Assembly (NCBI GenBank): GCA_041649635.1
Contig: JBAZMV010000007.1
Coordinates: 10,900-74,899, forward strand
Length of the DNA: 64,000 bases
DNA from: Dehalococcoidia bacterium
GTDB lineage: Bacteria; Chloroflexota; Dehalococcoidia; E44-bin15
Direction of reading: 5' to 3'
Shown: one piece after another, positions 4,123-29,635 of the stretch
Layout: the number at the start of each line of letters is the position of its first letter
How positions within the stretch are numbered: the stretch's first letter is position 1
Program-made: the position numbers and the translations under genes
Notes under the pieces: model-generated
The model's input: only the letters and a program-made list of their open reading frames with translations
Databases searched by the model: none
What the model was told of the DNA's origin: nothing

Positions 4123-4229
4123 ATGCGACCTCCTGCTAAAAGGTTACCATACGAGGAATAAACTTGACAAGGCGAAGCCGTATTGTTACAATCCACGATT
4201 GGAAGCAGTTCCAAATTTTTTGTTTTTAA

Positions 4230-4330: not shown

Positions 4331-5026
4331 ATGGCCACGAACAAGATAATAAGTACTGCTAAGAAAGAAGGTCGGACCGCTCTCACGGAGATCGAAGCGA
4401 AAAAACTCCTCACCGAAGCCGGAATATCCTGCACGGATATAAAGCTGGCCAAGACCGCCAAAGAGGCAGTCACTGAGGCCAAAAAAATGGGGTACCCCGT
4501 GGCTCTTAAGATAGTCTCTCCACAGATATTACATAAAACGGACGTCGGCGGCGTGAAACTCAACCTTAATAACGAAGGGGAAGTAAGCAAAGCCTTCGAC
4601 GAGATTGTCAAATCCGCCAAGAAGCACAAGCCTAAGGCCAAGATAGACGGCGTCTCGGTTCAGCCAATGGCGAAGCCGGGCATAGAGGTCATCATCGGAA
4701 TGAGCAAGGATCAGCAGTTCGGTCCCGTCCTCATGTTCGGGCTGGGCGGCATACTGGTTGAAGTGCTCAAGGATGTGTCTTTTAGGATCGTTCCGCTGAC
4801 GAAGCGCGACGCCAGGGAAATGATAAAGGAAATAAAGGGCTACCCCATCCTGCAGGGCTACCGCGGACATGAGCCCGCCAACATAGAGATGCTTGAGGAT
4901 ATCCTGCTCAAAGTCTCCGAATTTGTTGAGAAGCTGCCCGACATTAAGGAACTCGATATCAACCCCATATTCGCCTACAAAGACGGCGCGCTGGCCCTCG
5001 ACGCCCGCGTTATCCTCGAATCCTGA
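4331..5026 (+). CDS. ADP-forming acetyl/acyl-CoA synthetase, beta (ATP-grasp) subunit
   Basis: 231 aa. ATP-grasp pattern (E.EAK.LL...GI, GYPVALKIVSP.ILHKTDVGGV, INP). Immediately followed by the CoA-binding/ligase alpha subunit. Confidence 0.8.
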   Translation: MATNKIISTAKKEGRTALTEIEAKKLLTEAGISCTDIKLAKTAKEAVTEAKKMGYPVALKIVSPQILHKTDVGGVKLNLNNEGEVSKAFDEIVKSAKKHKPKAKIDGVSVQPMAKPGIEVIIGMSKDQQFGPVLMFGLGGILVEVLKDVSFRIVPLTKRDAREMIKEIKGYPILQGYRGHEPANIEMLEDILLKVSEFVEKLPDIKELDINPIFAYKDGALALDARVILES

Positions 5027-5035
5027 GGTAACGAT

Positions 5036-6457
5036 TTGGGAGATGCCATAAAGCGACTCGACCGGGCGTTCAACCCCCGCTCGGTAGCGGTGATCGGCGA
5101 CAAGATGGCTCTGGGCTATATGTGGCTCAAGTCCATGTCACACTTACAGGGCAGGCTGTACTCGGTACAGATCGATGAAAGGGAATTCCCCGGCATCGCT
5201 TCGCTAGGCATCAAGAACTACCTCAAACTAAGCGACATACAAGACGAAATCGACTACGCCGTAATCGCCGTGCCCAACACGGTAACGCCCAGGATTATCC
5301 GCGACTGCATCGACAAGAACGTCGGCGCGGCCTCGCTTTTCACCTCGGGCTTCGCCGAATCCGGCACCGAAGATGGGCGCAGGCTCCAGGATTCGATAGC
5401 GAAAATCGCACGCGACGCCGGCTTCAACCTGATAGGCCCGAACTGCATGGGCATATATAACCCGCGCCTCGGGGTAAGGCATTCCATCGATCAAATATAC
5501 GGACGCGGCGGCAACGTGGCCTTCATATCCCAGAGCGGAACACACGCCACCTTCTTCTCCCTCGTCGGCCCGCAGAACGGCATACATATATCGAAATCTG
5601 TGAGCTACGGCAACGCCGCGGTGCTGGACTCCACCGACTACCTGGAATATTTCGGCAACGACATAGAAACTGACCTCATCGGCATATATATAGAAGGCGT
5701 GAACGACGGCAGGAGATTCTTCTCCATTTTGAAGGATATAGCCCGACGCAAGCCAGTGGTCATCTGGAAGGGTGGCGTCAGCGACGAGGGAGGCAGAGCT
5801 ACAGCCTCGCACACGTCTTCCATGGCGGGTTCGCCGGCGATATGGGACGCACTCATCAGACAATGCGGCGCTATAAAAGCCGATAACCTTAACGAAGTAA
5901 TCGACGCGATCAAGCTGCTGCTGCACTCCAAACCGGTCGCCGGAGACAGGGTAGGCCTGGCAGCGATGACGGGCGGCCAGTCAGTGGTAATCACCGATGC
6001 CTTCACCAGGGAAGGTTTTAAGGTTCCATTGCTCAGCGAAGCTTCATACAGGAAGTTCGACGCTTTCTTCCAGACGCTTGGCGCAAGCTACCGCAACCCG
6101 CTCGATATCAGCCTCAACTTCCCGCATCTCGACCGGATTATCAAGTCTCTCGATGTGCTCAGCGAGGACGAGAACATCGACACCGTCGTACTCGAGATAT
6201 CCGTACCGTTTATGAAAGACCTGTCGTGGATAAATACGAACCTGTTCGACACTATGATCAAAGCGGTGTCGGATTTCAAGAAACGCTGCGCCAAGTCCTT
6301 TATCACGATACTGGTTCCGGCCCACGCCGAGCAGGAAGCGCTGGAGGTAAAAAAGAAGCTGGTAGCCCAGGATATCCCATGCTTCGCAAGCTTCGAGAGC
6401 GGGGCCAGAGCGCTGCGAAAAGCGGCCGATTTCTACAGCGACAAATCTTCGTCGTAG
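5036..6457 (+). CDS. ADP-forming acetyl/acyl-CoA synthetase, alpha (CoA-binding + CoA-ligase) subunit
   Basis: 473 aa with a TTG start and GAGG upstream. It has the PRSVAVIGD CoA-binding Rossmann, GPNCMG, and SQSGT (phospho-His loop region). Confidence 0.8.
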   Translation: MGDAIKRLDRAFNPRSVAVIGDKMALGYMWLKSMSHLQGRLYSVQIDEREFPGIASLGIKNYLKLSDIQDEIDYAVIAVPNTVTPRIIRDCIDKNVGAASLFTSGFAESGTEDGRRLQDSIAKIARDAGFNLIGPNCMGIYNPRLGVRHSIDQIYGRGGNVAFISQSGTHATFFSLVGPQNGIHISKSVSYGNAAVLDSTDYLEYFGNDIETDLIGIYIEGVNDGRRFFSILKDIARRKPVVIWKGGVSDEGGRATASHTSSMAGSPAIWDALIRQCGAIKADNLNEVIDAIKLLLHSKPVAGDRVGLAAMTGGQSVVITDAFTREGFKVPLLSEASYRKFDAFFQTLGASYRNPLDISLNFPHLDRIIKSLDVLSEDENIDTVVLEISVPFMKDLSWINTNLFDTMIKAVSDFKKRCAKSFITILVPAHAEQEALEVKKKLVAQDIPCFASFESGARALRKAADFYSDKSSS

Positions 6458-6566
6458 GGACACGGCGTGCCGTGCCCTCCCCACCCATGGATTCCGGCTT
6501 CCGCCGGAATGACGGCAGATGCTACATGCAACCGTCCAGTCGTAGGGGCGAGGTGCTCTCGCCCTC
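6457..6566. repeat. cluster of three REP-like hairpins
   Basis: Three hairpins: cacggc-gt-gccgtg (6461-6474); attccggc-ttcc-gccggaat (6491-6510, which on the minus strand reads GTCATTCCGGCGGAAGCCGGAAT); and cGTAGGGGCGAG-gtgct-CTCGCCC (6541-6564). Intergenic. The track ORFs across this region are translation artefacts. Confidence 0.6.
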
Positions 6567-6684
6567 AAATAAGAAATGACCGCTCCCACCAATAGTCCGC
6601 AACCTCTGCCCTTCCGAACGTAAAACAGTTGCGATTCGGCTCCTGTCTATGTTAAGATATAAGCACCATAAAGGAGGGATTTGC

Positions 6685-8106
6685 ATGGTAGGAATAACGT
6701 CTTTCGGTGCATATGTCCCCATCTACCGTCTCAATAGAGAAATCCTGGCCCAGGTCTGGGGAGGAAAAGGTAAAGGGGAAAAAGCAGTCGCAAACGCCGA
6801 TGAAGACAGCTTGACATTAGGCGTAGAGGCTGCAAGGGATTGCTTAAAGGGCTTCGACAAGAGCAAGGTCGACGCCCTTTATTTTGCCACGACAACGGCA
6901 CCCTACAAAGAGAAGCAGTCCGCCAGCATAATAGCTGCGGCCTGCGATCTCAGGGAGGAAATCCGCACTGTCGATATGACCGATTCTTTGCGGTCAGGGA
7001 CAGTCGCCATAATGATGGCATTAGATGCCGTCAAGGCCGGATCGGCAAGGACAGCCCTCGTGGTTGTAGCCGATACCAGGCTCGCTCCGCCGGACACGCT
7101 CTACGAATCTATCTTCGGAGACGGTGCGGCTGCGTTCCTTATCGGCAACGATAATGTGGTTGTCGAAATCGAGGGGATCAGCTCCACAACCGCCCCGTTC
7201 GTAGACTTCTGGAGGCTGGAGGACGACAAGATCATACGATGGTGGGAAGAACGTCTTTGCCGCGAGATGGGCTACGTTCCTTATATGAGCAACGCCATCG
7301 ACGCAGTCTTTAAGACAGCAAAGGTTGAGGTAAAGGACATCTCCAAAGCGGTGATCTCATCGCCGGACAAATCAATGCAGGGAGATATAGTAAAGAAATT
7401 TAAATTCGACCCCAAGGCGCAGGTGCAGGACCTGATGTACGACAACATCGGCCACACCGGATGCGCGCAGGTGCCCATGATGCTCGTCGCGGCACTGCAG
7501 AACGCCAAGGCCGGGGATAAGATACTCGCCGCCAACTATGCCGACGGTGCCGATGCCATGGTATTCAAAGTAACTGACAAGATAAGCAAGATGGCCGACC
7601 GCAGGGGTATTAAAGGCTATTTAAAATCCAGGGTCGCGTTACCCAACTACGGTAAGTATATGCACTTCCGCGACCTCATGGAATGGGAACACGACCTGTT
7701 CATGGAACGCAGAATGGCTCTGGCCGAGGTTTGGCGCCATCGCAACTTCTACTTCCGCTTCTACGGAGTGAAGTGCGGCAAGTGCGGACACATCATCGTC
7801 CCGGCGCCCAACACCTGCATCTACTGCCAAGCCGACGAGAAGTACTTCGAAGAGATACCTCTGGCCGATAAGAGAGGCTCGCTGGTTACATTCAGTCTGG
7901 ATATTCGATCGAGAGCCATTGATCCACCGAACGTGCTGGCCGCGGTCAATTTCCACGGAGGAGGCCGCTTCTTCAGCCAGATGACCGACCGTGACCCGGA
8001 CAACCTTAAGGTCGGCATGGAAATGGAACTCACCTTCCGCAGAATTCACGACGCGCTTCATATCCACAACTACTTCTGGAAGTGCCGGCCGGTGAGAGGG
8101 GAGTAA
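6685..8106 (+). CDS. HMG-CoA-synthase-like (thiolase-fold) protein fused to a C-terminal DUF35 zinc-ribbon/OB-fold domain
   Basis: The N-terminus MVGITSFGAYVPIYRL and ATTTAPYKEKQ blocks resemble HMGCS/KAS-III. The C-terminus has CGKCGH..(x11)..CIYC and an OB-fold-like tail. The ATG at 6685 has AAGGAGG 6-7 nt upstream. The position expected for the nucleophilic Cys reads SLRSGT. Confidence 0.75.
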   Translation: MVGITSFGAYVPIYRLNREILAQVWGGKGKGEKAVANADEDSLTLGVEAARDCLKGFDKSKVDALYFATTTAPYKEKQSASIIAAACDLREEIRTVDMTDSLRSGTVAIMMALDAVKAGSARTALVVVADTRLAPPDTLYESIFGDGAAAFLIGNDNVVVEIEGISSTTAPFVDFWRLEDDKIIRWWEERLCREMGYVPYMSNAIDAVFKTAKVEVKDISKAVISSPDKSMQGDIVKKFKFDPKAQVQDLMYDNIGHTGCAQVPMMLVAALQNAKAGDKILAANYADGADAMVFKVTDKISKMADRRGIKGYLKSRVALPNYGKYMHFRDLMEWEHDLFMERRMALAEVWRHRNFYFRFYGVKCGKCGHIIVPAPNTCIYCQADEKYFEEIPLADKRGSLVTFSLDIRSRAIDPPNVLAAVNFHGGGRFFSQMTDRDPDNLKVGMEMELTFRRIHDALHIHNYFWKCRPVRGE

Positions 8107-8117
8107 AGGAGCGCAAA

Positions 8118-9329
8118 ATGAGAGAAAGCATTAAAGATAAAGTATCAATTATTGGAACGGGCTGCACCAAATTCGCAGAGCGCTGGGATGCCGATGTAGA
8201 AGACCTTATCAAAGAGGCCGTCGACGAGGCGCTGGCCGATGCCGGTGTAGAGCTCAAAGACATACAGGCGGGATGGGTCGGAACCGGACGCGGTTCGCAG
8301 CAGGTGCCCATGGGACCCCCAAGCGCCATAATTGCCACCTCATCGCTGCAGACGCAGTATATTCCGTTCACGCGCGTAGAGAACCTGTGCTGCGCCGGAC
8401 AGGAGGCGGTCAGAGCCGCGGCATTCGGCATCGCATCTAAGAGTTACGACCTTGTGCTTGCTATCGGCGTTGAGAAGCTGAAGGACACCGGGTACGGCGG
8501 ACTGGGAGAGATGTTCCCCGGCCCCTGGCAGCCGGTATATGGCGCTCTCGGCACGCCTCCGGGCAGGTACGCCATGGCGGCTACCGCCTACTTTTCCAAG
8601 TACGGTCTTGATCCTCAGGAGGGTAAGAGGCTGCTGGCGGAGATCTCGGTAAAGAGCCACTACTACGGAAAACGCAACCCTAAGGCTCACCTGCAACGTG
8701 AAATAACGGTAGAAGAAGCGATAAACGCCCCGATGATCTGCTGGCCGCTGGGACTTTACGACTGCTGCGGCGTGACCGACGGCGCGTCGGCTGCGGTGCT
8801 GGTGCCTTCCTCAGAGGCCAAGGCCTATCGCGACGACTACGTCAATATCAAGGCATTCTCCATAGCCTGCGGACCGGGCTGGCTTAAAGAGGATGAGAGA
8901 TATGACTTCACCTACTGGAAGGAAACCCAGGAGGGAGCCAAGGCGGCTTATGCCGAGGCCGGGATCAAGGACCCGCGCAAGGAGCTGAGCCTGGTGGAGC
9001 TGCATGACTGCTTCTCCATCGCAGAGCTCATCGCCTGCGAGTCCATGTTCCTCTGCGAACCGGGCCACTTCAGAGAAGAGTTCACCGAGAAGCGCGCATA
9101 CTACCACGACGGCGAGATGCCGGTGGACGTCAGTGGCGGGCTGAAATCATTCGGTCATCCCATCGGAGCCAGCGGAGCGCGTGAGATCGAAGAGTGCGTG
9201 AAACAGCTTCAGGGCAAGGTGCAGGAACCTTCACGTCAGATAAAGAACTTCGAGTTAGGTTTAGCACATAACCAGGGCGGACATCCGGGACGCTTCGTGC
9301 CGGGCATTTGCATAGTCGGCCGTCCATAG
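8118..9329 (+). CDS. SCP-x/archaeal-type thiolase-like protein (nucleophilic Cys present)
   Basis: It has IIGTGCTKF, VENLCCAGQEA (active-site Cys region), ELHDCFS, and GGLKSFGHPIGASG. Start chosen at MRESIKD, 12 nt after the upstream stop. Confidence 0.8.
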   Translation: MRESIKDKVSIIGTGCTKFAERWDADVEDLIKEAVDEALADAGVELKDIQAGWVGTGRGSQQVPMGPPSAIIATSSLQTQYIPFTRVENLCCAGQEAVRAAAFGIASKSYDLVLAIGVEKLKDTGYGGLGEMFPGPWQPVYGALGTPPGRYAMAATAYFSKYGLDPQEGKRLLAEISVKSHYYGKRNPKAHLQREITVEEAINAPMICWPLGLYDCCGVTDGASAAVLVPSSEAKAYRDDYVNIKAFSIACGPGWLKEDERYDFTYWKETQEGAKAAYAEAGIKDPRKELSLVELHDCFSIAELIACESMFLCEPGHFREEFTEKRAYYHDGEMPVDVSGGLKSFGHPIGASGAREIEECVKQLQGKVQEPSRQIKNFELGLAHNQGGHPGRFVPGICIVGRP

Positions 9330-9378
9330 CTTTAGCAATAGTTTGCTGCATCATTAGAAACATTACAGGAGGTTAAGG

Positions 9379-10779
9379 ATGAAGAAGGTTCGAGTAGGGG
9401 CGGGGTCATCGGGTTGGCCCGACTATAAGGACGGCGCCCTCGATGTAGCTCAGAATGGTGATATAGATTACATAGGCTTCGACCATCTGGCCGAGTTGAC
9501 CATGGCCATTATGCAGAACCAGTACAAGAAGGATCCCAAGCGAGGCTATATACCTGAAGTTGCACCACTAATGAAAAAACTGCTGCCCATCTGGAAGTCC
9601 AAGGACAAGCATTTCAAGATGGTCTCAAACGGCGGCGGCGCCAACCCGCCGGAGTGCGCCAATCAGGTGCTGCAAATCGTCAAGGACCTTGACCTTGGCG
9701 GGATGAAGATCGGCGTCATCACCGGCGATACTATTCCTCTGGAGAAACTGGATACGCTTGCGAAGGGTGGCTGGAAGTTCAAGAACCTCGATACAGGAGA
9801 GGTCGGATTGGACAAGGTGCGCGATAAACTGCTCGCCGCCTACGTCTATGTAGGGGCGGACAAGGTTATCGAAGCCTTCGATCAGGGCGCGAACCTTGTC
9901 ATAGGCGGACGCCTGTCGGACAACTCGCTGTTCATCGGTCCTTTCATGCACGGACTGGGATGGAAGTTCGACGACGATCACTGGGACAGGATCGGCTCCG
10001 GCGTCACCGTCGGACACATCATCGAGTGCTCAAGCTGGAGCGCGGGCACTTGCTCCAACCTATGGGAGGAGATAGAGTACCCCAAGGGCAACCCGGGATT
10101 CCCCATCGTCGAGATGTACGAGAACGGCGACTGCTACGTGACTAAGACAAAGACATCCGGCGGCATGATAAAGGTACTCACCGCGATGGAGCATCTTGTT
10201 TATGAGGTGCACGATCCCCACAACTACATCATGCCCGACGGCATATCGGATATTACCGCTATAAATATTGCACAAGTAGAGAAGGACAAGATCAAGATAA
10301 CCCGGGCAGGAGAGGCTCCCCGCGGCAAAGCGCGGCCCGAGAACCTCAAGCTGTGCGTGGCCTATAACGACGGGTTCATCGCCGAGGAGATCACGGTCAT
10401 CAGCGGGCCCAAAGTGTTCAAGATGGCGGACAAGGCGCATGACTTCGTAATGAAGCGCATGGATTACCTCGGATTGAAACCGAGAGAGGTACTATGGTCA
10501 CTCATCGGCTGGGATTCACTCACCGGACCCGCCTCCAAGCCGCGCCCCGACCTGGAGCATGAGCCGCCCGAGCTGGGTATACGAATCGCCATCAAGTGCG
10601 ACACCAAGGAACAGGCGCGCGAATGCCGCACCGAGCTGGGACATATGTGCTGGGCATCGACCGGAGTGGGCACAGGCTTCACCAGCCCGCCCGACATCCG
10701 CCCCATTTTCGCCCTATGGCCTACGCTTATACCCAGGGAAGAAGTGCCGCTGAAGCTGGACATGGTGGAGGTTAAATAA
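9379..10779 (+). CDS. AtuA-like acyclic terpene utilisation family protein (DUF1446)
   Basis: 466 aa. The N-terminal VGAGSSGW..D, the FDHLAELTMAI block, and the size and architecture match my memory of DUF1446/AtuA. TAATG coupling to the next ORF, which is the usual small partner. Confidence 0.65.
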   Translation: MKKVRVGAGSSGWPDYKDGALDVAQNGDIDYIGFDHLAELTMAIMQNQYKKDPKRGYIPEVAPLMKKLLPIWKSKDKHFKMVSNGGGANPPECANQVLQIVKDLDLGGMKIGVITGDTIPLEKLDTLAKGGWKFKNLDTGEVGLDKVRDKLLAAYVYVGADKVIEAFDQGANLVIGGRLSDNSLFIGPFMHGLGWKFDDDHWDRIGSGVTVGHIIECSSWSAGTCSNLWEEIEYPKGNPGFPIVEMYENGDCYVTKTKTSGGMIKVLTAMEHLVYEVHDPHNYIMPDGISDITAINIAQVEKDKIKITRAGEAPRGKARPENLKLCVAYNDGFIAEEITVISGPKVFKMADKAHDFVMKRMDYLGLKPREVLWSLIGWDSLTGPASKPRPDLEHEPPELGIRIAIKCDTKEQARECRTELGHMCWASTGVGTGFTSPPDIRPIFALWPTLIPREEVPLKLDMVEVK

Positions 10780-11162
10780 TGGCTAAGAAGAAGATTAAGC
10801 TGATGGACTTTTGCTGGTATCGCTCCGGCGACAAGGGCGATATAGCTAATATAGGACTCATAGCCAAGACACAGAAGGGATACGAGGTCATAAAGAAGGA
10901 AGTAACGCCGGAAAGGATCAAGGCGCACTTCAAGGACTGGTGCAAGGGCGATGTCATCATCTACCCGATGGATAACTTCTGCGCCCTTGAGATCAACATG
11001 TTCGAATCCCTCGGCGGCGGCGCTACAAAGACGCTCAGGCTGGATCAGACAGGGAAGGCCATGTGCGTCGGGCTGGCGCGCATGGAAGTAGAAGTAGAAG
11101 AGAGCGACATCAAGGCTTTGACGGGCCCTCCGTACGACACGATGGCCAATCCCGAAGCATAA
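10779..11162 (+). CDS. AtuA-associated small protein (DUF4387-like)
   Basis: 127 aa with a 1-nt overlap with the AtuA-like gene. The YRSGDKGD motif is typical of the small partner found next to DUF1446 genes. Confidence 0.55.
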   Translation: MAKKKIKLMDFCWYRSGDKGDIANIGLIAKTQKGYEVIKKEVTPERIKAHFKDWCKGDVIIYPMDNFCALEINMFESLGGGATKTLRLDQTGKAMCVGLARMEVEVEESDIKALTGPPYDTMANPEA

Positions 11163-11176
11163 TCTAGGAGAGTTTT

Positions 11177-12004
11177 ATGCCTTTAACAGGGCCGGACGTC
11201 CTTCTGGTTGAGAAGAAGGGCCACATAACGATAATTACGATCAATCGACCTGAGCGCAGGAACTCCATGAATCTTGACCTGTACGATTTGCTGGACAAGA
11301 CATGGAAGGAATTCAGCGAGGACGATAACGCGTTCGTAGCCATACTGACCGCGGCCAACGATCCGGCCATCGAGGCGGGCAAGCAGGCCTTCTGCTCCGG
11401 CATGGATATGAAGGACCAAGCGGAGCGGGTGGCCAAGGACCCCGCTTACGACATAGTGAAGTTACGCCCGGGGGTTGTCGACGGAACGTACGGCACCCCC
11501 TTCGGGCACAACGTTACCAAGCCGGTCATCGGCGCGATTAACGGCGTGGCCACGGCCGGCGGCTTCCAGTTCAGCATGATGTGCGACCTTAAGGTGGCCG
11601 CCGATACGGCGCGCTTCGGCACGGGCGAGGTCAAGGTGGGTCGCGGCACACCGTGGGCGGTCCCGCTACTCTGGCAGATGCCGCTCCCTATCGCCTTTGA
11701 GATACTCCTCACCGGCAACCTGATACCGGCTAAGCGCCTGTACGACGTCGGCTGGATCAACCGCGTAGTGCCGCTGGACCAGCTGATGCCGACTGCGATG
11801 GAGCTGGCCGAGACGCTGGCGGAGAACGCCCCGCTCTCGGTGCGATGTGCCAAGGAAGCGATGTACAAAGCCATGGACGTCGGGCGCAAAGCCGGGATCG
11901 ATGCGGCCAAGATAATTTACGAGAAGGTTTACAGCAGCGAGGATGCAAAAGAGGGGCCTCGCGCTTTCGCGGAGAAGAGAAAGCCGGTCTGGAAGGGCCG
12001 GTAG
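11177..12004 (+). CDS. enoyl-CoA hydratase/isomerase (crotonase) family protein
   Basis: 275 aa. It has ITINRPERRN, the oxyanion-hole region AINGVATAGGFQFSMMCDL, and the EG.RAF.EKR.P C-terminus. Confidence 0.88.
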   Translation: MPLTGPDVLLVEKKGHITIITINRPERRNSMNLDLYDLLDKTWKEFSEDDNAFVAILTAANDPAIEAGKQAFCSGMDMKDQAERVAKDPAYDIVKLRPGVVDGTYGTPFGHNVTKPVIGAINGVATAGGFQFSMMCDLKVAADTARFGTGEVKVGRGTPWAVPLLWQMPLPIAFEILLTGNLIPAKRLYDVGWINRVVPLDQLMPTAMELAETLAENAPLSVRCAKEAMYKAMDVGRKAGIDAAKIIYEKVYSSEDAKEGPRAFAEKRKPVWKGR

Positions 12005-12044
12005 CAAATACTATATTTACCCCGATTGAAGGGAAGGAGGATGC

Positions 12045-13190
12045 ATGGATTTTAGTTTCACAGAAGAACAAGAAATGTGGCGCACTATGATGATGGACTT
12101 CACCGAGAAGGAAGCCGGACGGGAATATACCCGCATGTGCGACCAGGAAAAGCACTACCCGCAAGAGCTGTGGGAGGCCGGTAACAAAGAGGGATTCCTC
12201 GGATTGCTCATTCCTAAAGAGTGGGGCGGCATGGGCTCCGGCGCCATTATGTACGCCATATTCATGGAGTGCCTGGCGAAATACAGCTACGAGATGGCAT
12301 CGCTGTTCAGCGTCCCCATGTTCTGCGCCATGAACCTAGTGGAGCACGGCACAAAGGAGCAGCAGGATCAATACCTGCCGCCATTCGTCAAGGGCGAGCA
12401 GAGGTTTTCCGTAGCGATAACCGAGCCCGAGGCCGGCTCCGATGCCTCAGCCGTTGCATGTCAGGCTGATGATAAGGGCGACCACTTCGTACTCAATGGC
12501 CAAAAACAGTTCTCCACCGCGGCGCACCTGCCAGGCAACATCGTCTTCATGGCAGTGAAGACCGATAAGAACGCCAAGCCCGCCCGAAACGGCATCAGCG
12601 TGCTGCTGGTACCCAATGACGCCCCGGGCATAGAAGTAAAAAGATTGCCTCTAATCGTCAGGCGTGCTATCGGCACCTGCTCTATATTCTGCGGCGACGC
12701 CAAGATTCCTAAGAAGAATCTTGTTGGCGAGTTAAATGGAGGATGGCAAGTTCTCGTCGGCCACCTGGAGCTTGAGCGTCTTGCCGGCGCCGCGCCCAAC
12801 GTAGGCGAGGCGCAGTGCTGTCTCGACGATGCCATCAACTACGCCAAGGAGCGTGTGCAGTTCGGCAAACCCATCTGCAAGAACCAGGGTATCAGCCATA
12901 TGCTGGCCGATCTCCAGGCCCAGCTCGACGCCGTGCGCCTGCTCACCTACCGCGCGGCGTGGATGATAGACCAGAAGATACCATGCCGCAAAGAGGTTTC
13001 CATGGCCAAGATGATGGCCGGAGAGGTTTTCTATGCGGTGACAACGGCATCGATGCAGACCTTCGGCGGATACTCATTCCTTCCCGAGTCTGACATCGAG
13101 CGCCACTGGAGGCTGTCTAAGATGTTCTGCATCGGCGGCGGCACAACCCAGATCCAGCGCATGATCATCGCCCGCGACCTGGGCATGTAA
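12045..13190 (+). CDS. acyl-CoA dehydrogenase
   Basis: 381 aa. It has AITEPEAGSD, QFGKPI, and the catalytic-base region ...IGGGTTQIQRMIIAR. Confidence 0.9.
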   Translation: MDFSFTEEQEMWRTMMMDFTEKEAGREYTRMCDQEKHYPQELWEAGNKEGFLGLLIPKEWGGMGSGAIMYAIFMECLAKYSYEMASLFSVPMFCAMNLVEHGTKEQQDQYLPPFVKGEQRFSVAITEPEAGSDASAVACQADDKGDHFVLNGQKQFSTAAHLPGNIVFMAVKTDKNAKPARNGISVLLVPNDAPGIEVKRLPLIVRRAIGTCSIFCGDAKIPKKNLVGELNGGWQVLVGHLELERLAGAAPNVGEAQCCLDDAINYAKERVQFGKPICKNQGISHMLADLQAQLDAVRLLTYRAAWMIDQKIPCRKEVSMAKMMAGEVFYAVTTASMQTFGGYSFLPESDIERHWRLSKMFCIGGGTTQIQRMIIARDLGM

Positions 13191-13212: not shown

Positions 13213-13247
13213 AAAGGCGTGTCCCCGGGGACACGCCTTTTGTTTTT
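13213..13247 (+). terminator. intrinsic terminator after the acyl-CoA module (potentially bidirectional)
   Basis: Perfect 28-nt palindrome AAAGGCGTGTCCCC|GGGGACACGCCTTT followed by TGTTTTT. Confidence 0.75.
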
Positions 13248-14607: not shown

Positions 14608-16833
<2,226 letters not shown>

Positions 16834-19979: not shown

Positions 19980-20612
19980 TCAGCGGCCTCCGTGATATGC
20001 GGAGATAAGGGCCTTGATACTCCTGCCGATGGAATCAAAATCACCCGCCTTGAGCCATTCCTCGCGGAACACGCTGCCGCCGAAGGCCACAGCCGAGACG
20101 CCGCAATCGAAGTAAGAGCGGATGTTTTCCGGCGTGACGCCGCCGCACGCCATTAATTCGATGCTGTTGAATGGCCCCTTGATCTCTCTTATATACTCGG
20201 GACCGAGCAGATTCGACGGGAAGACCTTGACCATGGTAGCCCCGGCAACCCACGCGTTGTATATCTCCTGCGGAGTTAGCGCGCCGGGGAACACCGGTAT
20301 CTCATTATCGCGGCAGTATTCTACGACATCGTATATAAGCATGGGTGAAACGATGAATCCGGCGCCTGCATCGAGGGCTAGTTTCATATGCTCGGAAGTG
20401 ACGACTGTTCCCGCGCCTATCATCAATCGACCATGGGCACACTTAACGGCACACCTTATCAGATCGGGGGCGCCCGGTGTGTTCATGGTGACCTCGATGG
20501 TCTGTAAACCTGACGATACAGCCGTTTCCACAATCGAATCAATGGAGTCAGGCTGCACGCCGCGCAATATCCCCATCAAGGGCAGAGCGCGGAATCTGTC
20601 GAGGTCCATCAT
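19980..20612 (-). CDS. eda: KDPG/KHG aldolase (Eda family)
   Basis: 210 aa. It has GILRG, IEVT.NTP, GAGTV, and the PG..TP.E and VK.FP motifs of class I Eda aldolases. Confidence 0.8.
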   Translation of the reverse strand: MMDLDRFRALPLMGILRGVQPDSIDSIVETAVSSGLQTIEVTMNTPGAPDLIRCAVKCAHGRLMIGAGTVVTSEHMKLALDAGAGFIVSPMLIYDVVEYCRDNEIPVFPGALTPQEIYNAWVAGATMVKVFPSNLLGPEYIREIKGPFNSIELMACGGVTPENIRSYFDCGVSAVAFGGSVFREEWLKAGDFDSIGRSIKALISAYHGGR

Positions 20613-20622
20613 TTCTTACCGC

Positions 20623-21576
20623 CTATTCAACCTGCAGGCTGCTGGTCAAGCTGTCGTAGAACTGACGATAGTTTTCTTTCTCATCGCTGTTTCGTAGCGC
20701 GATAGCCGCCCGGGGATGCTCGTTAAGCATGCCTGCTATGGCATGAGGAATGATATACCCCCACTCGATCTTTTGCCTTAATGGGATGAACTGCGTAGAG
20801 ATAAGATCCAGCACAGGACGTATATCGAATTTAGGATTGTTTAGAAACCCCAGAAGTAGTTCCAGCGGGCAGTTGCCCGCAGCCCTGCCGATACCGTACA
20901 CCGTGGCGTCCAGGAAATTGGCATCGTGGATTATCGCTTCGATGGTGTTGCCGAAGGCAAGCTGCTGGTTATTGTGGCCGTGAAACCCGACCTCCTTGTT
21001 TTTCAGATACTTCTTACATCGCTTGACCAGCTCCTCCACTGTTTCCTGATACAGCGAGCCGAAGCTGTCAACGATATAGACCACCTGAACCTTGCTCTCC
21101 TCCTCAACCTGTTGCAACGCCTCGTCCAGCTCCGGGCCGCGATCCCTTGAAATCGCCATAATATTCATAGTGGTCTCATAGCCTTTATCGGCGAAATGAT
21201 TAACCAGATATATCGCCTTGTCGATATCCTTCACGTACGTAGCTACCCTGATCATGTCCACCGGCGACTCGGCAGCCGGCGTCACCTCATCCGGATTCAC
21301 CCGGCCGACATCCACCATCGTCGCGATCTTGGTCTTGGATTCTATCCCATCGACGGCGCGCTTGATAACATCATCATCGCAGAACTTCCACAGTCCGAAT
21401 TTCTCTGTCGAGAAAAGCTCCTTGGAATTCTTATACCCTATCTCCATGTAATCGACCCCCGCATCGGAGACCGCCTTGTAAACCCCGCGCACGAACTCTA
21501 CATCAAAGTCATGATCATTTATAAGCCCGCCGTCACGTATCGTGCAATCAAGCACCTTTATTTTTTCTCTGTACAT
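20623..21576 (-). CDS. DRE-TIM metallolyase (HMGL-like / 4-hydroxy-2-oxoacid aldolase family)
   Basis: 317 aa. It has DCTIRDGG, D.MEIGY, HGHNN and G.GRAAGN. No DmpG communication domain is evident. Confidence 0.7.
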   Translation of the reverse strand: MYREKIKVLDCTIRDGGLINDHDFDVEFVRGVYKAVSDAGVDYMEIGYKNSKELFSTEKFGLWKFCDDDVIKRAVDGIESKTKIATMVDVGRVNPDEVTPAAESPVDMIRVATYVKDIDKAIYLVNHFADKGYETTMNIMAISRDRGPELDEALQQVEEESKVQVVYIVDSFGSLYQETVEELVKRCKKYLKNKEVGFHGHNNQQLAFGNTIEAIIHDANFLDATVYGIGRAAGNCPLELLLGFLNNPKFDIRPVLDLISTQFIPLRQKIEWGYIIPHAIAGMLNEHPRAAIALRNSDEKENYRQFYDSLTSSLQVE

Positions 21577-24732: not shown

Positions 24733-25926
24733 TTACTCAGGTAATCCAACAATAGAGCAGGAAATGACGCACGCCATCGGCATGGAGCCAAGGTTGTGGG
24801 TCAAACCAAGCTTCGGGTTCTTGATCTGGCGTTTACCAGCCTTGCCAAGCAGCTGCAGATACATCTCGTACATCATACGCAGACCTGTGGCGCCAACCGG
24901 GTGACCGAAACACTTCAGTCCGCCATCGGGTTGAACCGGCAAGCCTCCATCCAGATCGAAGAAGCCACTCTCGATATCCTCTTTCATATGTCCGCGCTTG
25001 CTGAACTGGAGGTCCTCCATCACGATGGCCTCGGTAATGGAGAAACAGTCGTGCACTTCAGCCATGTCGATCTCCTCGCGGGCATTCTTAATCCCGGCCT
25101 CTTTGTAGACGTTTATCGCCGCGCGTGTGGTTTCCTCGGTATGAAGGAAGTCATACTCCGGCTTCACCACGCCCTCGGCGGGGCCGACGCACATCTGGAT
25201 ACCTTTGATGGTGATGTAATCTCTGTTCTTCTTGAACTTCTTGGCATCCTCAGCCCTGACCACGATAGCCGCAGCGCTTCCATCGCTGACGCCGCAACAG
25301 TCGAAAAGTCCTAACGGCCAGGCGATGATTGGCGCATTGATTGCCTGCTCAATGGTTATCTCCTTATGGAAATGCGCCTTCGGATTCATGTTGCCATTAT
25401 GGTGGCTCTTCATTGAGACATGGGCCAGCATCTTCCTGCCGTCATCGGGTTTGATGTTATAGTGATTGAAGTATCTCGTGGCCAGCATGGCGAAGATCGC
25501 CGGCGCGGTTGTAGTGATTCCGCCGACGCCGGCTGTGCCTGGAGGCGATACGGAGACCAGTCCGGCAAATCCCATGTCCTTTAATTTTTCGGCGCCTATC
25601 GCCAGTCCGACATCGATCACGCCGGAGGCAACGGCATACGCGCAGTTGCGCAGGGCATCGGTGCCTGTGCAGCACATATTCTCCACCCTGGTTATCGGTT
25701 TGTATTGCAGCCGGAGGCCGGCAAGGCCGAGACCCGACATGCCGGAGACTTCCTGCCAGTTACCGATCCAGGCCGCATCTATATCTTTGGGCTCGATGCC
25801 GGCATCCGCATACGCATCGTAAGCGGCATCCACCATAAGATCGGAGACGCTCTTGCCCCATAGCTCACCGAACTTGGTGCAGCCCATTCCAATTATGGCT
25901 ACTCTATCTTTAATACTCTGTGCCAT
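24733..25926 (-). CDS. SCP-x/archaeal-type thiolase-like protein (nucleophilic Cys present), paralogue of 8118-9329
   Basis: It has IIGMGCTKFGE, VENMCCTGTDA, EVHDCFS, and GGLKCFGHPVGATG. It follows the HMGCS-like::DUF35 gene, the same order as in the first copy. Confidence 0.8.
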   Translation of the reverse strand: MAQSIKDRVAIIGMGCTKFGELWGKSVSDLMVDAAYDAYADAGIEPKDIDAAWIGNWQEVSGMSGLGLAGLRLQYKPITRVENMCCTGTDALRNCAYAVASGVIDVGLAIGAEKLKDMGFAGLVSVSPPGTAGVGGITTTAPAIFAMLATRYFNHYNIKPDDGRKMLAHVSMKSHHNGNMNPKAHFHKEITIEQAINAPIIAWPLGLFDCCGVSDGSAAAIVVRAEDAKKFKKNRDYITIKGIQMCVGPAEGVVKPEYDFLHTEETTRAAINVYKEAGIKNAREEIDMAEVHDCFSITEAIVMEDLQFSKRGHMKEDIESGFFDLDGGLPVQPDGGLKCFGHPVGATGLRMMYEMYLQLLGKAGKRQIKNPKLGLTHNLGSMPMACVISCSIVGLPE

Positions 25927-25940
25927 TTCGTCCTCCTTTC

Positions 25941-27395
25941 TTATCCCCTCACCGGTCTTGCTTTCCAGTGGTAGTTATGGATACCGCGGTCATAGTACAG
26001 TTTTCTGAACACCATCTCCACAGGCATCCCGACTTCGACTTTCTCAGGATCGCGGTCCGTCAGATCGAACATGCCGCGGCCGCCGCCATCGAAGTCTAAA
26101 CATACCGGAGTTGCCGGCGGATCGATAACATCAGCCAGCAGGTCAAGCGAGTATGAGAATAGCTTAGCCTTCTTATCGGAGAACTTGTAATCTTCGAAAT
26201 TGTCCTTCGTCTGGCAATAGTAGCAAACGCGTATCGGGGTCATGCCGCCGATGCCGAACGGCAGCTGCCACATTACATGGCCGCAGGTAAGACACTTCTT
26301 ACCGTAGAGACACAGCACTTCTTTGCGACTGCGTTTCAGAGCCGTCAGCGACGCGAAAGGTATCTCCGGCCGTCTCGCGCGCTCGATGGTCACGATACCG
26401 CGCCAGCGCAGATAGCTGTAATACGGAAGCATCCTCTTCGAGGCCATATTAGACTTGATGCCGCGATGCGCTTTGGCCTTTTTCTTACCGATTGCCTCGG
26501 TGCATTCAATCAGGAACGCATCGGCACCGTTGCCGTACTGGGCGAGCAGAATCTTGTCGCCCGGTTTGGCATCCTCCAGTGCGGCAACCAGCATCATCAT
26601 GCCCATAGCGGCGCCGCAGGTGCCGACAGTCATGAAGAAGCAGTCCTGTACCTGACCGAAGCCGAAACCGCATTCTACCAGGACCTTACCGTGCCTTCTC
26701 ACGTCCATGGGCGAGTTGATAACGGCCTTTGTAATGTCCTTAGGCTCAAGCTTTGCTTTTTGCAAGAGTCCCTTGATCGCCTTCGGAAGCTGATCCGAAT
26801 ATCCTTCGTCAAGCACCTGGCGGTCCTCCCATGTGCGAACGTAATGATCGACATCAGCCCGCCATTCGCCTGCGTATTCGTCCGAAACAGTGTAGCTCTC
26901 TTTTATGATAGCGATCGGGTCTTTATCGCCCAGCAGCAAACAAGCGGAACCGTCGCCGTACATGGCCTCGCCCTGTCCCGCGGGAGCGCCCATGCGACAA
27001 TCGGATGCCACTACCAGCATGTTCTTTACCGAACCCGCCTTGACCGCATCAGCCGCCGCCATGAGAGCCGACGTGCCGGCCCTCAGCGAGTTGGTGAAGT
27101 CAGCGGTGCGGACAGCCTCCTTCATATCAAGTGCCGTAGCAATGATAGTGGAGCATTGCTTCTCTTTATACGGAGAGCAAGTGGTGCCTAAGAACAAGCC
27201 GTCGATCTTCTTGGGATCGGCACCGGCCAGGCAATCATTCGCTGCGTCCCAGGCCATAGTTACCGCATCCTCATCGTAGCTGGCAACCGCTTTCTCTCCG
27301 GGAATCGGGAATCCTCCCCATGCCTTGTAGAATTCCTCCCGACTCACTCGATGATACGGGATATAAGCGCCATATGAAATTATCCCTACCATCAA
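25941..27395 (-). CDS. HMG-CoA-synthase-like protein fused to DUF35 zinc-ribbon/OB-fold, paralogue of 6685-8106
   Basis: It has MMVGIISYGAYIPY and GTTCSPYKEKQ. The expected Cys position reads NSLRAGT. The C-terminus has CLTCGH...CYYC and ends like copy 1 (IHNYHWKARPVRG versus IHNYFWKCRPVRGE). Confidence 0.75.
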   Translation of the reverse strand: MMVGIISYGAYIPYHRVSREEFYKAWGGFPIPGEKAVASYDEDAVTMAWDAANDCLAGADPKKIDGLFLGTTCSPYKEKQCSTIIATALDMKEAVRTADFTNSLRAGTSALMAAADAVKAGSVKNMLVVASDCRMGAPAGQGEAMYGDGSACLLLGDKDPIAIIKESYTVSDEYAGEWRADVDHYVRTWEDRQVLDEGYSDQLPKAIKGLLQKAKLEPKDITKAVINSPMDVRRHGKVLVECGFGFGQVQDCFFMTVGTCGAAMGMMMLVAALEDAKPGDKILLAQYGNGADAFLIECTEAIGKKKAKAHRGIKSNMASKRMLPYYSYLRWRGIVTIERARRPEIPFASLTALKRSRKEVLCLYGKKCLTCGHVMWQLPFGIGGMTPIRVCYYCQTKDNFEDYKFSDKKAKLFSYSLDLLADVIDPPATPVCLDFDGGGRGMFDLTDRDPEKVEVGMPVEMVFRKLYYDRGIHNYHWKARPVRG

Positions 27396-27480
27396 TACAC
27401 CTCCTTTTTTATTTGACTAACAGCATATTTCAGTTTAAGAGGCATTTCGACCATGCCTGCATAAACACTGTGCCCAATTA

Positions 27481-27504
27481 TAAAAAAATCGGCCCTTAGC
27501 CGAT
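27481..27504 (-). terminator. intrinsic terminator after the CoA-transferase gene (minus strand)
   Basis: The minus strand reads ATCGGC-TAAGG-GCCGAT-TTTTTTTA. The hairpin includes the TAA stop of 27496-28668. Confidence 0.5.
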
Positions 27505-28668
27505 TACCTCCGCCTTGCGCAACTCCGCGATCTTCGCATCATCGTATCCAAGCTCGCGCATTATCTCATCGGTGTGCTCGCCGAACTTTGTGCTCCAATT
27601 CCGAACTTTCATCGGTGAATCCGACAGCTTATGCATCGAGCCGACCTGCTTCACCTTGCCGTGCACCGGATGGTCGCTTTCCATTATCATTTTACGCGCG
27701 ATGAGGTGCGGATCATTCTCCAGTTCCTCAACATCAAGTATGGGCGCTACACACGTATCCTTCTGCTTAAGGATGGACACCCACTCATCACGCGTCTTGG
27801 TCAGGAACTTCTTACGGAAGGCTTCAAACATCTCCTTGCGCTTCTCGCCCTCATCGAACTCGTACGGAATAAATTCATCTAATCCGAGCAACTGACAGAG
27901 ATTGCCGAAGAACCACGGTTCGAGCGCGCCGATGCTGATATACTTGCCGTCCTTGGTCTCATAAACGTTGTACCAGGGGAAATGCCCGGTGAACATGGTG
28001 TCACCGCGTTTAGGCGCACCGCTATGACTGAATATGTACGGGTTGATCTGCATGGACGTCAGCTCCACAACGGCATCCGTCATCGACATATCGATGTACT
28101 GGCCTTTACCAGTAACCCCCCTCGACACCAGAGCAGCCAGGATGCCGATCGCCGCCGACATACCGCCGGTGAAATCACCGATGACGGACCCCGGCAGCGC
28201 CGGCTTGCCGCCTGCCTGCCCTGTGAGTCCGAGCAAGCCGCTGTAAGATATATAATTGATATCATGCCCGACCATATCGCGATACGGCCCGTCCTGGCCG
28301 TAGCCGGACAACGAGGCGTAGACGATCTTAGGATTTATCTGCTTTAATGTTTCGTAATCGACACCGAGACGCTTGACTACGCCGGGCCTGAAACCTTCCA
28401 TGACCACATCGGCGGACTTTACCATGTCCCTGAAGACCTGTTTGCCGGTATCCGACTTAAGATCGAGTCCCATATTACGACAATTCCTCAAGCCGGGACG
28501 CGAGGAGTCGAAGAGCATCATTACCGGCCCGCCACGTTTCGCCGGATTGGCATCGAAAACCTTGATGATATCGGCGCCCAGATCTCCCAGCATAAACGAG
28601 CAGAAAGGGCCCGGGCCAAGCCATGCCAGATCGAGTATCTTTATACCTTCAAGCGCTTGAGGCGACAT
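27496..28668 (-). CDS. family III CoA-transferase (CaiB/BaiF/Frc type)
   Basis: 390 aa. It has ILDL....GP.C...L.DLGADIIKV, then NCRNM..DLK...G and the GD..GG region. Confidence 0.85.
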   Translation of the reverse strand: MSPQALEGIKILDLAWLGPGPFCSFMLGDLGADIIKVFDANPAKRGGPVMMLFDSSRPGLRNCRNMGLDLKSDTGKQVFRDMVKSADVVMEGFRPGVVKRLGVDYETLKQINPKIVYASLSGYGQDGPYRDMVGHDINYISYSGLLGLTGQAGGKPALPGSVIGDFTGGMSAAIGILAALVSRGVTGKGQYIDMSMTDAVVELTSMQINPYIFSHSGAPKRGDTMFTGHFPWYNVYETKDGKYISIGALEPWFFGNLCQLLGLDEFIPYEFDEGEKRKEMFEAFRKKFLTKTRDEWVSILKQKDTCVAPILDVEELENDPHLIARKMIMESDHPVHGKVKQVGSMHKLSDSPMKVRNWSTKFGEHTDEIMRELGYDDAKIAELRKAEVIG

Positions 28669-28708
28669 CGTAATTCCCCTTTAAAATTAAGCTAATCTGC
28701 CGAATATA

Positions 28709-29635
28709 CTATTTAGCTGTATTCAGCTTCTTTAATTCATCAAGATCAAGCGGGTCGCCTTTAGACGGGTCCCGCACCAGTTTAATAGCGCCGATCGGAC
28801 AAACATCCTCACAGACACCGCAGCCCATACACTTTTCCACATTAATCTCAGCTACCTGATCACCCAGCGTAATAGCGCTGAAACGGCAAGTGCCATCGCA
28901 GCTGCCACAACCGTTACAATCATCACTGACAGTGGCGATATAGCCCGAGGATGCGATTATAGGAACCATCCCGCCGAGCATGTTCCACATTTTTATCCCT
29001 AGGCAACAGCAGTCACAGCAGTTACATATTGCAAAGAACTTGTTTCCTACATCCTTTTTGAAATACGCGCAATGCACATCGCCGCGTTTGTGCGCATCCT
29101 CGATAACCTTAACCGCCTCCTCCTGCGTAATCTTGCGGAACAACGGATTCTTCTCTCCTATGAATGAAGCGAAAGGATCGCCGATGAAGAGACAAACATC
29201 CTGCTTCCCAGGGGGAAGGCATGGATTGGGCGAGGCCGCGCGGCAGGCGCATACCCCCACCGCTATCGACTCCGGGTTTTCCAGTACTATATCCCTTGCA
29301 ACTTTGTACGGAATAACCTGTTCTGGGGGGCATATATTCAACGGCTCTTTCTGAGTAACCAGCTTGACCGCGTCTTGAATTTTCACCACCTTACCGTGAT
29401 AAAAGCTGGTCTCCAATGAAAGAGCTGTTTCTGCGATGCGCTGAACACCGGCCTCAATCAACTCATCTATGCCGGCTTCCGGCAACTCGGTGCGATCCTT
29501 GGGAGCCTGCCCGGCTATTTTAATGGCGTGATAAAGAAAATCATCGATGTACTTCATGTAGACATAGGCTGAAAAGAAGTCACTTTTGTTCTCCATGGGA
29601 TAGGAATCGTAGAGGGCCTTTGTTACTGGATCCAT
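28709..29635 (-). CDS. Cys-rich Fe-S protein with C-terminal 2x[4Fe-4S] ferredoxin domain
   Basis: 308 aa. It has CNGCGSCDGTC and CMGCGVCEDVCP ferredoxin motifs. These are preceded by an unusual CNCCDCCC cluster and by VCACRAASPNPC. Confidence 0.65.
   Translation of the reverse strand: MDPVTKALYDSYPMENKSDFFSAYVYMKYIDDFLYHAIKIAGQAPKDRTELPEAGIDELIEAGVQRIAETALSLETSFYHGKVVKIQDAVKLVTQKEPLNICPPEQVIPYKVARDIVLENPESIAVGVCACRAASPNPCLPPGKQDVCLFIGDPFASFIGEKNPLFRKITQEEAVKVIEDAHKRGDVHCAYFKKDVGNKFFAICNCCDCCCLGIKMWNMLGGMVPIIASSGYIATVSDDCNGCGSCDGTCRFSAITLGDQVAEINVEKCMGCGVCEDVCPIGAIKLVRDPSKGDPLDLDELKKLNTAK

Follow-up and report, generated by a model that had tools for sequence, protein, structure and literature searches.

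A fused HMG-CoA synthase-like/DUF35 protein without the catalytic tetrad, probable accessory subunit of a catabolic thiolase in a Dehalococcoidia-like bacterium

The window analysed here is a stretch of 64,000 nucleotides from a Dehalococcoidia bacterium assembly (GCA_041649635.1, contig JBAZMV010000007.1, positions 10,900 to 74,899 of the forward strand); positions below are those of the window. Its plus strand carries two adjacent genes. One (6685-8106) encodes a 473-aa fusion protein, in which a domain resembling hydroxymethylglutaryl-CoA (HMG-CoA) synthase (HMGCS, or HMGS) is joined to a DUF35 module; the other (8118-9329) encodes a 403-aa thiolase of the SCP2/archaeal type and begins with an ATG 11 nt past the stop codon of the fusion gene. 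We propose that the two products are probably the subunits of a heteromeric thiolase complex in which the thiolase alone is catalytic and which serves the catabolic thiolysis of 3-oxoacyl-CoA.

The start of the fusion gene was placed at the ATG at 6685, which is preceded by AAAGGAGGG. An alternative start at 6649 (485 aa) was dropped, since the ribosome-binding site and the homologues, which share the same MxGI start, both point to the ATG at 6685. In the protein an HMGCS-like domain is connected by a linker to a Cys4 zinc ribbon, after which comes an OB fold. The HMGS/KAS-III-like domain covers residues 1-330 (6685-7674) in the HMMER alignment to 6esq_I, which is the HMGCS chain in the thiolase/HMGCS/DUF35 complex of the archaeon Methanothermococcus thermolithotrophicus, and contains the Pfam matches ACP_syn_III and ACP_syn_III_C (residues 97-288). 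It is followed by a rubredoxin-like zinc ribbon at residues 358-385 (7756-7839; Pfam zf-ChsH2), with C364, C367, C378 and C381 as ligands, and by the OB-fold domain of DUF35 at residues ~395-469 (7867-8091), as delimited by Pfam OB_ChsH2_C (395-452), the match to 6esq_E and the beta strands of an AlphaFold2 model.

Comparison with PDB chains by phmmer gave 6esq_I as the top match of the fusion protein (5.8e-37), followed by the PhlA-type chains 9skh_A (2.5e-33) and 5m3k_A (PhlA itself, 3.9e-31) and by MucA 9vbo_A (1.5e-28). Its C-terminal part matched the archaeal DUF35 chain 6esq_E (4.9e-8), and the DUF35 part matched BbsA (6.6e-7). The AlphaFold2 model, computed with 120 homologues as input, has a pLDDT of 88 and a pTM of 0.89 and is less confident only at the linker, around residues 331-350. 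When this model was submitted to Foldseek, the HMGCS of 6ESQ was recovered with a TM score of 0.90 (rmsd 2.0 A), PhlA with 0.86-0.87 and MucA with 0.83-0.85, which places the protein in the HMGCS/KAS-III group of the thiolase superfamily. In bit scores the fused family is about equidistant from archaeal HMGCS and from PhlA/MucA: the copy described here scores slightly better against HMGCS, and a second copy encoded in the window (see below) slightly better against PhlA. The fold assignment made in an earlier reading of this DNA from its letters only (hereafter the sequence-only reading), namely an HMGCS/KAS-III-like domain followed by a zinc ribbon and an OB fold, is thus borne out by Pfam, by the PDB matches and by the structural model.

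The catalytic tetrad E-C-H-N of archaeal HMGCS consists of E82, C114, H238 and N270 in M. thermolithotrophicus numbering (PMC12960953). In the HMMER alignment to 6esq_I, which is gapless across these positions, the four residues correspond to T70 (codon 6892-6894), L102 (6988-6990), S225 (7357-7359) and H257 (7453-7455) of the fusion protein. The sequence-only reading had aligned the active-site block by hand and found Leu at the place of the acyl-accepting Cys; the profile alignment gives the same residue and extends the loss to the Glu, the His and the Asn. The codon of Leu102 is TTG, two substitutions away from either Cys codon, and a sequencing error is therefore not the cause of the missing Cys. 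Together with a hydrophobic residue at this position throughout the family and a dN/dS of ~0.11, this codon also rules out a pseudogene. Against curated HMGCS equivalog models the fusion protein stays below the cutoffs (NF003274, 227.3 vs 244 bits; TIGR00748, 169.8 vs 353.35; TIGR01835, 71.9 vs 360.35). In the archaeal enzyme, a quadruple mutation of the tetrad abolishes HMG-CoA formation (PMC12960953). Since all four tetrad residues are lost, the fusion protein is, as far as its sequence tells, no genuine HMG-CoA synthase; it probably serves as an accessory or scaffold subunit of the thiolase, in line with what the sequence-only reading had considered more likely from the Cys position.

The partner thiolase has kept what the fusion protein has lost. 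It was assigned from Pfam (Thiolase_C_1, 1.1e-28), from the NCBIfam model NF004810 (477.5 bits vs a cutoff of 403) and from alignment to PDB chains. Its Cys91 (8388-8390), in the NLCCAG motif already noticed in the sequence-only reading, aligns with the nucleophilic Cys of the archaeal ACAT chain 6esq_A, and an HDCF motif at residues 296-299 (9003-9014) and a GHP motif at 346-348 (9153-9161) are present. HDCF is a mark of SCP2-thiolases. The best PDB matches are 6esq_A (2e-50), other archaeal-type thiolases, BbsB 7pxp_C (3.4e-44) and the SCP2-thiolase 6hsj_A (7.3e-39). Matches to MucB (3.3e-17) and PhlC (3.9e-15) are much weaker, and those to archaeal ACAT and BbsB exceed that to PhlC by 30-35 orders of magnitude.

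The sequence-only reading had raised the question of how widespread the fused, Cys-less form is. A scan of one genome per species gave at least 577 loci with full-length relatives; carriers among the loci listed are mostly Dehalococcoidia and other Chloroflexota, with Thermodesulfobacteriota, Acidobacteriota, Nitrospinota, Nitrospirota, Armatimonadota, Actinomycetes, Peptococcaceae and Binatia besides. All 87 full-length open reading frames examined from the best 79 of these loci lack Glu and Cys at the catalytic positions. The same holds closer by: of the 120 database homologues nearest to the protein (54-92% identity), every one has Thr in the Glu position and Leu, Ile, Met or Val in the Cys position. 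The four Cys of the zinc ribbon are invariant, both in these 120 sequences and in 89 of 89 relatives. We also searched the HMGS-like domain alone, exhaustively, against 1.84 billion representatives of 50%-identity clusters, which gave 444 clusters at E <= 1e-30. The best 150 of these 444 representatives are 30-53% identical to the query and include no sequence with Cys or Glu at the catalytic positions; 123 of them are at least 440 aa long, and 116 of these 123 carry the Cys4 ribbon. Coupling to the thiolase is equally regular. In 73 of the 79 cases that could be tested, the next gene downstream, read from the same strand, encodes the thiolase, two more having a broken thiolase reading frame, and the Cys, H-D-x-F and GHP motifs are kept in 69 of 69 full-length partner thiolases.

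Despite the loss of its active site, the HMGS-like domain is not decaying but under purifying selection. In comparison with the orthologue in L001, a Dehalococcoidales metagenome-assembled genome (MAG), the HMGS-like domain has a dN/dS of 0.107, the linker and DUF35 together one of 0.140 and the thiolase one of 0.065, values that are approximate since dS (~1.1) is near saturation. R15, D39-E40-D41, E76, K77, D97, S101 and R132 are invariant in the 120 closest homologues and R103 is nearly so; most of these charged or polar residues remain at 90% or more across the 150 cluster representatives.

Three longer relatives were also seen. One (P0165, 911 aa) combines the HMGS-like and DUF35 parts with a short-chain dehydrogenase/reductase (SDR) and an SCP2 domain, another (P0182, 722 aa) with two SCP2 domains; the tetrad is absent from both. 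These additional SDR and SCP2 modules are typical of beta-oxidation, and the layout is reminiscent of eukaryotic MFE-2/SCPx. The third (P0121, 723 aa) was not used, as its C-terminal ATP-grasp and molybdopterin-binding domains look like a chimera of assembly or gene calling. Tandem duplication of fusion-thiolase pairs is frequent (L010, L018, L019, L021, L027, L036, L038 and L063), and several Dehalococcoidia genomes, for example CP070819.1, E29_bin15 and UBA2777, carry multiple pairs, a sign that the family has expanded into paralogues.

In the window the pair sits in a tight cluster of eight plus-strand genes (4331-13190). The first two encode the beta (ATP-grasp) subunit of an ADP-forming acyl-CoA synthetase (4331-5026; Pfam ATP-grasp_5, 1.6e-92), which scores under the cutoff of all the NCBIfam acetate-, 3-hydroxypropionate- and 4-hydroxybutyrate-CoA ligase models, and its alpha subunit (5036-6457; Pfam Succ_CoA_lig and CoA_binding_2; TIGR02717, 326 bits, under cutoff). 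The fusion protein and the thiolase follow, and then an AtuA-family protein (9379-10779; Pfam AtuA, 2.7e-103), an AtuA ferredoxin-like domain protein (10779-11162; PF23544, 8e-21), an enoyl-CoA hydratase of the crotonase family (11177-12004; Pfam ECH_1, 9.2e-47) and an acyl-CoA dehydrogenase (12045-13190; N, M and C domains in Pfam). The two AtuA-type genes overlap by one base and are conserved together with the operon in L001 and in a second Dehalococcoidales MAG, L004. AtuA has no sequence relative in the PDB, and a literature search on the function of AtuA, DUF1446 and DUF4387 was uninformative. Upstream of the first gene, a promoter-like TTGACA-17-TACAAT (TG-extended) was found at 4164-4192 on the plus strand by match to the consensus, the total of such sites in the region being no higher than in shuffled sequence; 23 nt past the stop codon of the acyl-CoA dehydrogenase gene lies a hairpin resembling an intrinsic terminator (13213-13240, plus strand; 12-bp stem with 7 G-C pairs and a T-rich tail). 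The full order of the eight genes is kept in L001 and L004, with 73-81% identity.

No polyketide synthase (PKS) or nonribosomal peptide synthetase (NRPS) gene adjoins the pair or was found among the scanned reading frames of the window, and no mevalonate-pathway gene was recognised among the larger reading frames scanned. The DNA stems from a landfill metagenome, its host being a Dehalococcoidia-like organism. The sequence was found in metagenomic DNA runs only; the single RNA run shares 13% of its words and represents a distant relative only.

The surroundings of the pair in other organisms are of the same kind. Genes for acyl-CoA dehydrogenase, enoyl-CoA hydratase and family III CoA-transferase adjoin it in many other loci, where tandem pairs also occur. 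Cultured degraders carry it on plasmids (Novosphingobium sp. ES2-1, plasmid p3, IM701_RS20355/20360; Rhodococcus qingshengii; Azoarcus sp. KH32C, AZKH_RS24540/24535; Variovorax sp. SRS16), and the clusters in such degraders contain acyl-CoA dehydrogenase, SDR, enoyl-CoA hydratase, MaoC, acyl-CoA ligase, and P450 or ring-hydroxylating dioxygenase genes. The fusion proteins from plasmids of cultured Proteobacteria are 28-34% identical over the full length and carry the same motifs. On haloarchaeal megaplasmids the thiolase gene precedes the fusion gene, inside clusters for phenylacetate degradation (paa); the tetrad is lost there as well, and HDCF and GHP are kept. The pair might take the role of the PaaJ thiolase in these clusters. 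Examples are pHMA288 of Haloarcula marismortui (L084; E6P14_RS02000/02005) and a plasmid of Haladaptatus caseinilyticus (L085), with paaK, paaI, MaoC, 3-hydroxyacyl-CoA dehydrogenase and enoyl-CoA hydratase genes as neighbours.

A study published in Nat Commun in 2026 collected 1,030 bacterial loci in which HMGS, ACAT and DUF35 genes occur together, of which 1,001 are without secondary-metabolism neighbours, and characterised PfACAT/HMGS-DUF35 from Pseudomonas fluorescens (PMC12960953). In this complex the fused HMGS-DUF35 is without the E-C-H-N tetrad and the ACAT keeps Cys, HDxF and GHx; it forms neither HMG-CoA nor acetoacetyl-CoA from acetyl-CoA, cleaves acetoacetyl-CoA thiolytically, and nearly loses thiolysis upon mutation of the HDxF His (PMC12960953). 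By contrast, HDxF is absent from PhlC and MucB, which show no thiolysis, and MucB alone is insoluble and inactive (PMC12960953). All the sequence features by which that study defines the fused class are present in the window pair, and the loss of HDxF which defines the Phl/Muc class is not seen.

The proposed thiolase would work as follows. The 403-aa protein, with Cys91 as the nucleophile, the HDCF loop and GHP, would be the sole catalyst. The fusion protein would be a pseudoenzyme whose ancestors were the HMGCS and DUF35 subunits of a complex of the archaeal kind. With its zinc-ribbon/OB-fold module, which in solved complexes bridges the HMGS-like and thiolase subunits, it would keep the thiolase assembled and active, and it possibly contributes to CoA or substrate binding or to a shared CoA/acyl pocket. 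The reaction would be CoA-dependent thiolysis of a 3-oxoacyl-CoA, as the last step of the beta-oxidation-type route encoded in the operon, and the ADP-forming synthetase may either activate the acid or conserve energy from the product.

Several points weigh against this proposal. A physical complex is suggested by gene order and by analogy with homologous complexes, and the thiolytic direction is a likely one. The likeness to the P. fluorescens protein is one of published architecture and motifs. In four loci (L040, L053, L057 and L062; Acidobacteriota/Blastocatellia MAGs, fusion ~42% identical) there is no thiolase within 8 kb on either side. No 3-hydroxyacyl-CoA dehydrogenase is recognisable in the operon, which leaves the beta-oxidation cycle incomplete unless AtuA, the AtuA ferredoxin-like protein or a gene elsewhere fills the step. 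Finally, so many charged and polar residues are conserved in the dead domain that its role may go beyond that of a scaffold.

Other explanations fare less well. A true HMG-CoA synthase function, which is what homologues are named for in the databases, would agree with the top matches of the fusion protein in NCBIfam (NF003274, 227.3 bits) and in the PDB, both of them HMGCS, but the NCBIfam scores remain under curated cutoffs (227.3 vs 244; 169.8 vs 353) and Glu, Cys, His and Asn are replaced here and in all relatives examined. As the archaeal tetrad mutant is inactive and the fused P. fluorescens complex yields no HMG-CoA (PMC12960953), this explanation, already in conflict with the sequence, has hardly any credibility left. 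The sequence-only reading had likened the pair to a PhlA-PhlB fusion with PhlC, which in Pseudomonas make up a CoA-independent C-C acyltransferase. In a Friedel-Crafts C-acyltransferase of this PhlACB/MucABC kind, an acetyl group on the thiolase Cys would be passed to a phenolic or tetramic-acid acceptor instead of CoA. The three modules are indeed the same (a tetrad-less HMGS-like subunit, DUF35 and a thiolase-like subunit), and PhlA-type and MucA chains are among the top sequence and structure matches of the HMGS-like domain. This analogy did not hold for the thiolase: HDxF, whose absence marks PhlC and MucB, is kept here as HDCF and in 69 of 69 partners, the matches to PhlC (4e-15) and MucB (3e-17) compare with 2e-50 for archaeal ACAT, beta-oxidation enzymes and no PKS/NRPS gene lie nearby, and the characterised fused form acted as a thiolase (PMC12960953). 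A C-acyltransferase is accordingly very unlikely.

The complex could also run in the biosynthetic direction, by non-decarboxylative Claisen condensation as in reverse beta-oxidation or in a fatty-acid-synthase-like archaeal ketothiolase/DUF35 system, the HMGS-like domain then holding or channelling the 3-oxoacyl-CoA. Thiolases are reversible, the ancestral archaeal complex runs in the condensing direction, and archaeal ketothiolase/DUF35 pairs have been proposed for fatty-acid synthesis (bioRxiv 10.1101/2024.07.05.601840). However, once the HMGS site is dead, the complex has no exergonic second reaction that could drive the unfavourable condensation, and acetoacetyl-CoA formation from acetyl-CoA was undetectable with the P. 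fluorescens complex (PMC12960953). The operon encodes an acyl-CoA dehydrogenase and a crotonase-type hydratase and no NADPH-type ketoreductase or enoyl reductase, and homologues lie in catabolic clusters of known degraders, so that we regard a biosynthetic role as unlikely. We judge it improbable, too, that the HMGS-like domain is still an enzyme, a second catalytic subunit that relies on other residues to carry out some new conversion of a CoA thioester. Such an activity would account for the strong purifying selection (dN/dS 0.107), for the invariant or nearly invariant T70, E76, K77, D97, S101, R103, R132 and R177 around the former active-site strands, and for the lack of an obvious 3-hydroxyacyl-CoA dehydrogenase in the operon. 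Yet thiolase-superfamily chemistry without a nucleophilic Cys is not known, no catalytic role is known for PhlA and MucA, which equally lack the tetrad, the active pocket being in the thiolase-like subunit, and conserved residues are also expected at interfaces and in a shared CoA-binding chamber.

The catabolic thiolase with a non-catalytic HMGS-DUF35 subunit, as proposed above, may be taken one step further, in a manner we consider speculative. The dead domain, having retained the ancestral CoA/acyl chamber, could be the substrate-selecting half of the enzyme, with paralogous pairs tuned to bulky, branched or ring-derived 3-oxoacyl-CoAs and the AtuA pair supplying another step of the pathway; with this family, anaerobic subsurface bacteria would then possess a major class of specialised catabolic thiolases that has so far gone unrecognised. 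We mention this because of three hints: the two pairs in the window, the tandem pairs of Dehalococcoidia and the paa-linked pairs of haloarchaea.

The loss of the tetrad also has consequences for annotation. The sequence-only reading had held that the label HMG-CoA synthase would be misleading, and both JGI and the NCBI annotation of MAGs do in fact give it to close homologues. In RefSeq, homologues are named 'OB-fold domain-containing protein' or '3-oxoacyl-ACP synthase III C-terminal domain-containing protein', and the curated NCBIfam cutoffs already reject the HMGCS call for both copies in the window. With hundreds of such proteins labelled 'hydroxymethylglutaryl-CoA synthase', false calls of the mevalonate pathway or of ketogenesis could result, since Dehalococcoidia are reported to have the methylerythritol phosphate (MEP) pathway only (PMC6107057). 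A simple rule would sort these sequences: absence of the tetrad with a fused DUF35 and an adjacent HDxF thiolase indicates an accessory subunit of a catabolic thiolase; an intact tetrad indicates a true HMGCS; and loss of HDxF from the thiolase-like subunit indicates an acyltransferase of the Phl/Muc type. Our literature search returned no paper linking Dehalococcoidia with hydroxymethylglutaryl-CoA synthase, and nothing specific to the fused family on HMG-CoA synthase-like proteins in anaerobic degradation. Novosphingobium ES2-1, Rhodococcus, Azoarcus KH32C and Haloarcula marismortui are tractable organisms in which the substrates could be sought.

As the sequence-only reading had indicated in calling the pair 'copy 1 of 2', a second pair is encoded on the minus strand. 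Its fusion protein (25944-27392) has 483 aa, is 43% identical to the first, has T71 in place of the Glu and L104 in place of the Cys, and scores 225.5 bits against the HMGCS model NF003274 (cutoff 244). Its thiolase (24733-25926; 397 aa) has Cys85, HDCF at 292 and GHP at 341, and scores 567.7 bits with NF004810. This copy belongs to a different gene set (24733-32673, minus strand), which further encodes a family III CoA-transferase (27496-28668), a 308-aa protein with a 4Fe-4S dicluster domain (28709-29635), an SDR/epimerase-family reductase (29724-30740) whose best match, an OleD-like 2-alkyl-3-oxoalkanoate reductase, is under cutoff, and an aldehyde:ferredoxin oxidoreductase (30796-32673). 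The composition of the set suggests a distinct pathway, one that acts on an acid or an aldehyde.

A third thiolase-type module lies on the plus strand between 33719 and 49112. It includes two SCP2-type thiolase-like proteins (35643-36800 and 36818-37972) and a stand-alone DUF35 protein (37885-38475); two family III CoA-transferases, a zinc-dependent alcohol dehydrogenase and 3-oxoacid CoA-transferase A/B (44328-45799) come after it. Four CrtI/CrtO-like FAD oxidoreductases are encoded in the same region (33719-35410, 42576-44315, 45848-47479 and 47625-49112), which looks like a large catabolic island for a substrate of the terpenoid, steroid or alicyclic type. In two other loci (L061 and L069) a thiolase-thiolase-DUF35 trio directly follows a fusion-thiolase pair of the copy 2 type.

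Some further genes of the window were recorded. Directly downstream of the eight-gene operon, 14638-16833 encodes a KatG-type catalase-peroxidase (731 aa, two peroxidase domains), notable for a presumed landfill anaerobe. At 19980-21576 (minus strand) a gene of the HMGL-like (DRE-TIM lyase/aldolase) family adjoins a KDPG/KHG aldolase gene; its match is generic (2.5e-22), and we did not take it as evidence of HMG-CoA metabolism. A 1738-aa protein encoded at 54828-60044, with a subtilase (S8) domain and several InlB B-repeat/Listeria-Bacteroides repeat domains, is probably a surface or secreted protease.

Among known systems, the archaeal thiolase/HMGCS/DUF35 complex (6ESQ) provides the best matches for all three modules of the pair and shares the thiolase motifs HDCF and GHx. 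It differs in having an active HMGCS, which pulls the condensation to HMG-CoA for the mevalonate pathway, and a DUF35 that is a separate chain; here the site is dead, DUF35 is fused and the context is catabolic. PhlACB of P. protegens (5M3K/5MG5) and MucABC of S. macacae (9VBO) resemble the window pair in their tetrad-less HMGS-like subunit, DUF35 bridge and catalytic Cys in the thiolase-like subunit, but they are without HDxF, use non-CoA acceptors, have a separate DUF35 and belong to PKS or NRPS clusters. The replacements of the tetrad differ as well, being T/L/S/H in the window protein and C/G/Q/D in the mutant made to mimic Phl/Muc (PMC12960953).

The benzoylsuccinyl-CoA thiolase BbsAB of Geobacter metallireducens (7PXP) is likewise of the SCP2 type; it carries HDxF, requires a zinc-finger subunit of the DUF35 kind and catalyses the final thiolytic step of a beta-oxidation-like catabolic pathway; unlike the window pair, it has no HMGS-like module. 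In the steroid side-chain aldolases ChsH1-ChsH2(DUF35)-Ltp2 and Shy-Sal, a fused DUF35 docks a protein of the SCP2-thiolase fold, again in catabolism, but there DUF35 is joined to a MaoC hydratase, and the docked protein acts as a retro-aldolase.

The closest parallel is PfACAT/HMGS-DUF35, with which the window pair shares a single-chain HMGS-DUF35, the loss of the tetrad, an adjacent ACAT-type thiolase with Cys, HDxF and GHx, and the lack of PKS/NRPS neighbours. The architecture was thus already described in 2026; what we add is the breadth of the family, its consistent catabolic context and the conserved operon of Dehalococcoidales. The window pair differs from PfACAT/HMGS-DUF35 in its source, a Dehalococcoidia-like landfill MAG, in its gene order, the fusion gene preceding the thiolase gene, and in its place within a conserved eight-gene catabolic operon. 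The P. fluorescens complex was seen by its authors as an evolutionary intermediate without a pathway (PMC12960953). The conserved operon, the beta-oxidation neighbours in degraders, the haloarchaeal paa clusters and the fusions with SDR and SCP2 domains argue for working catabolic thiolases and not for functionless intermediates, a modest refinement of the 2026 view.

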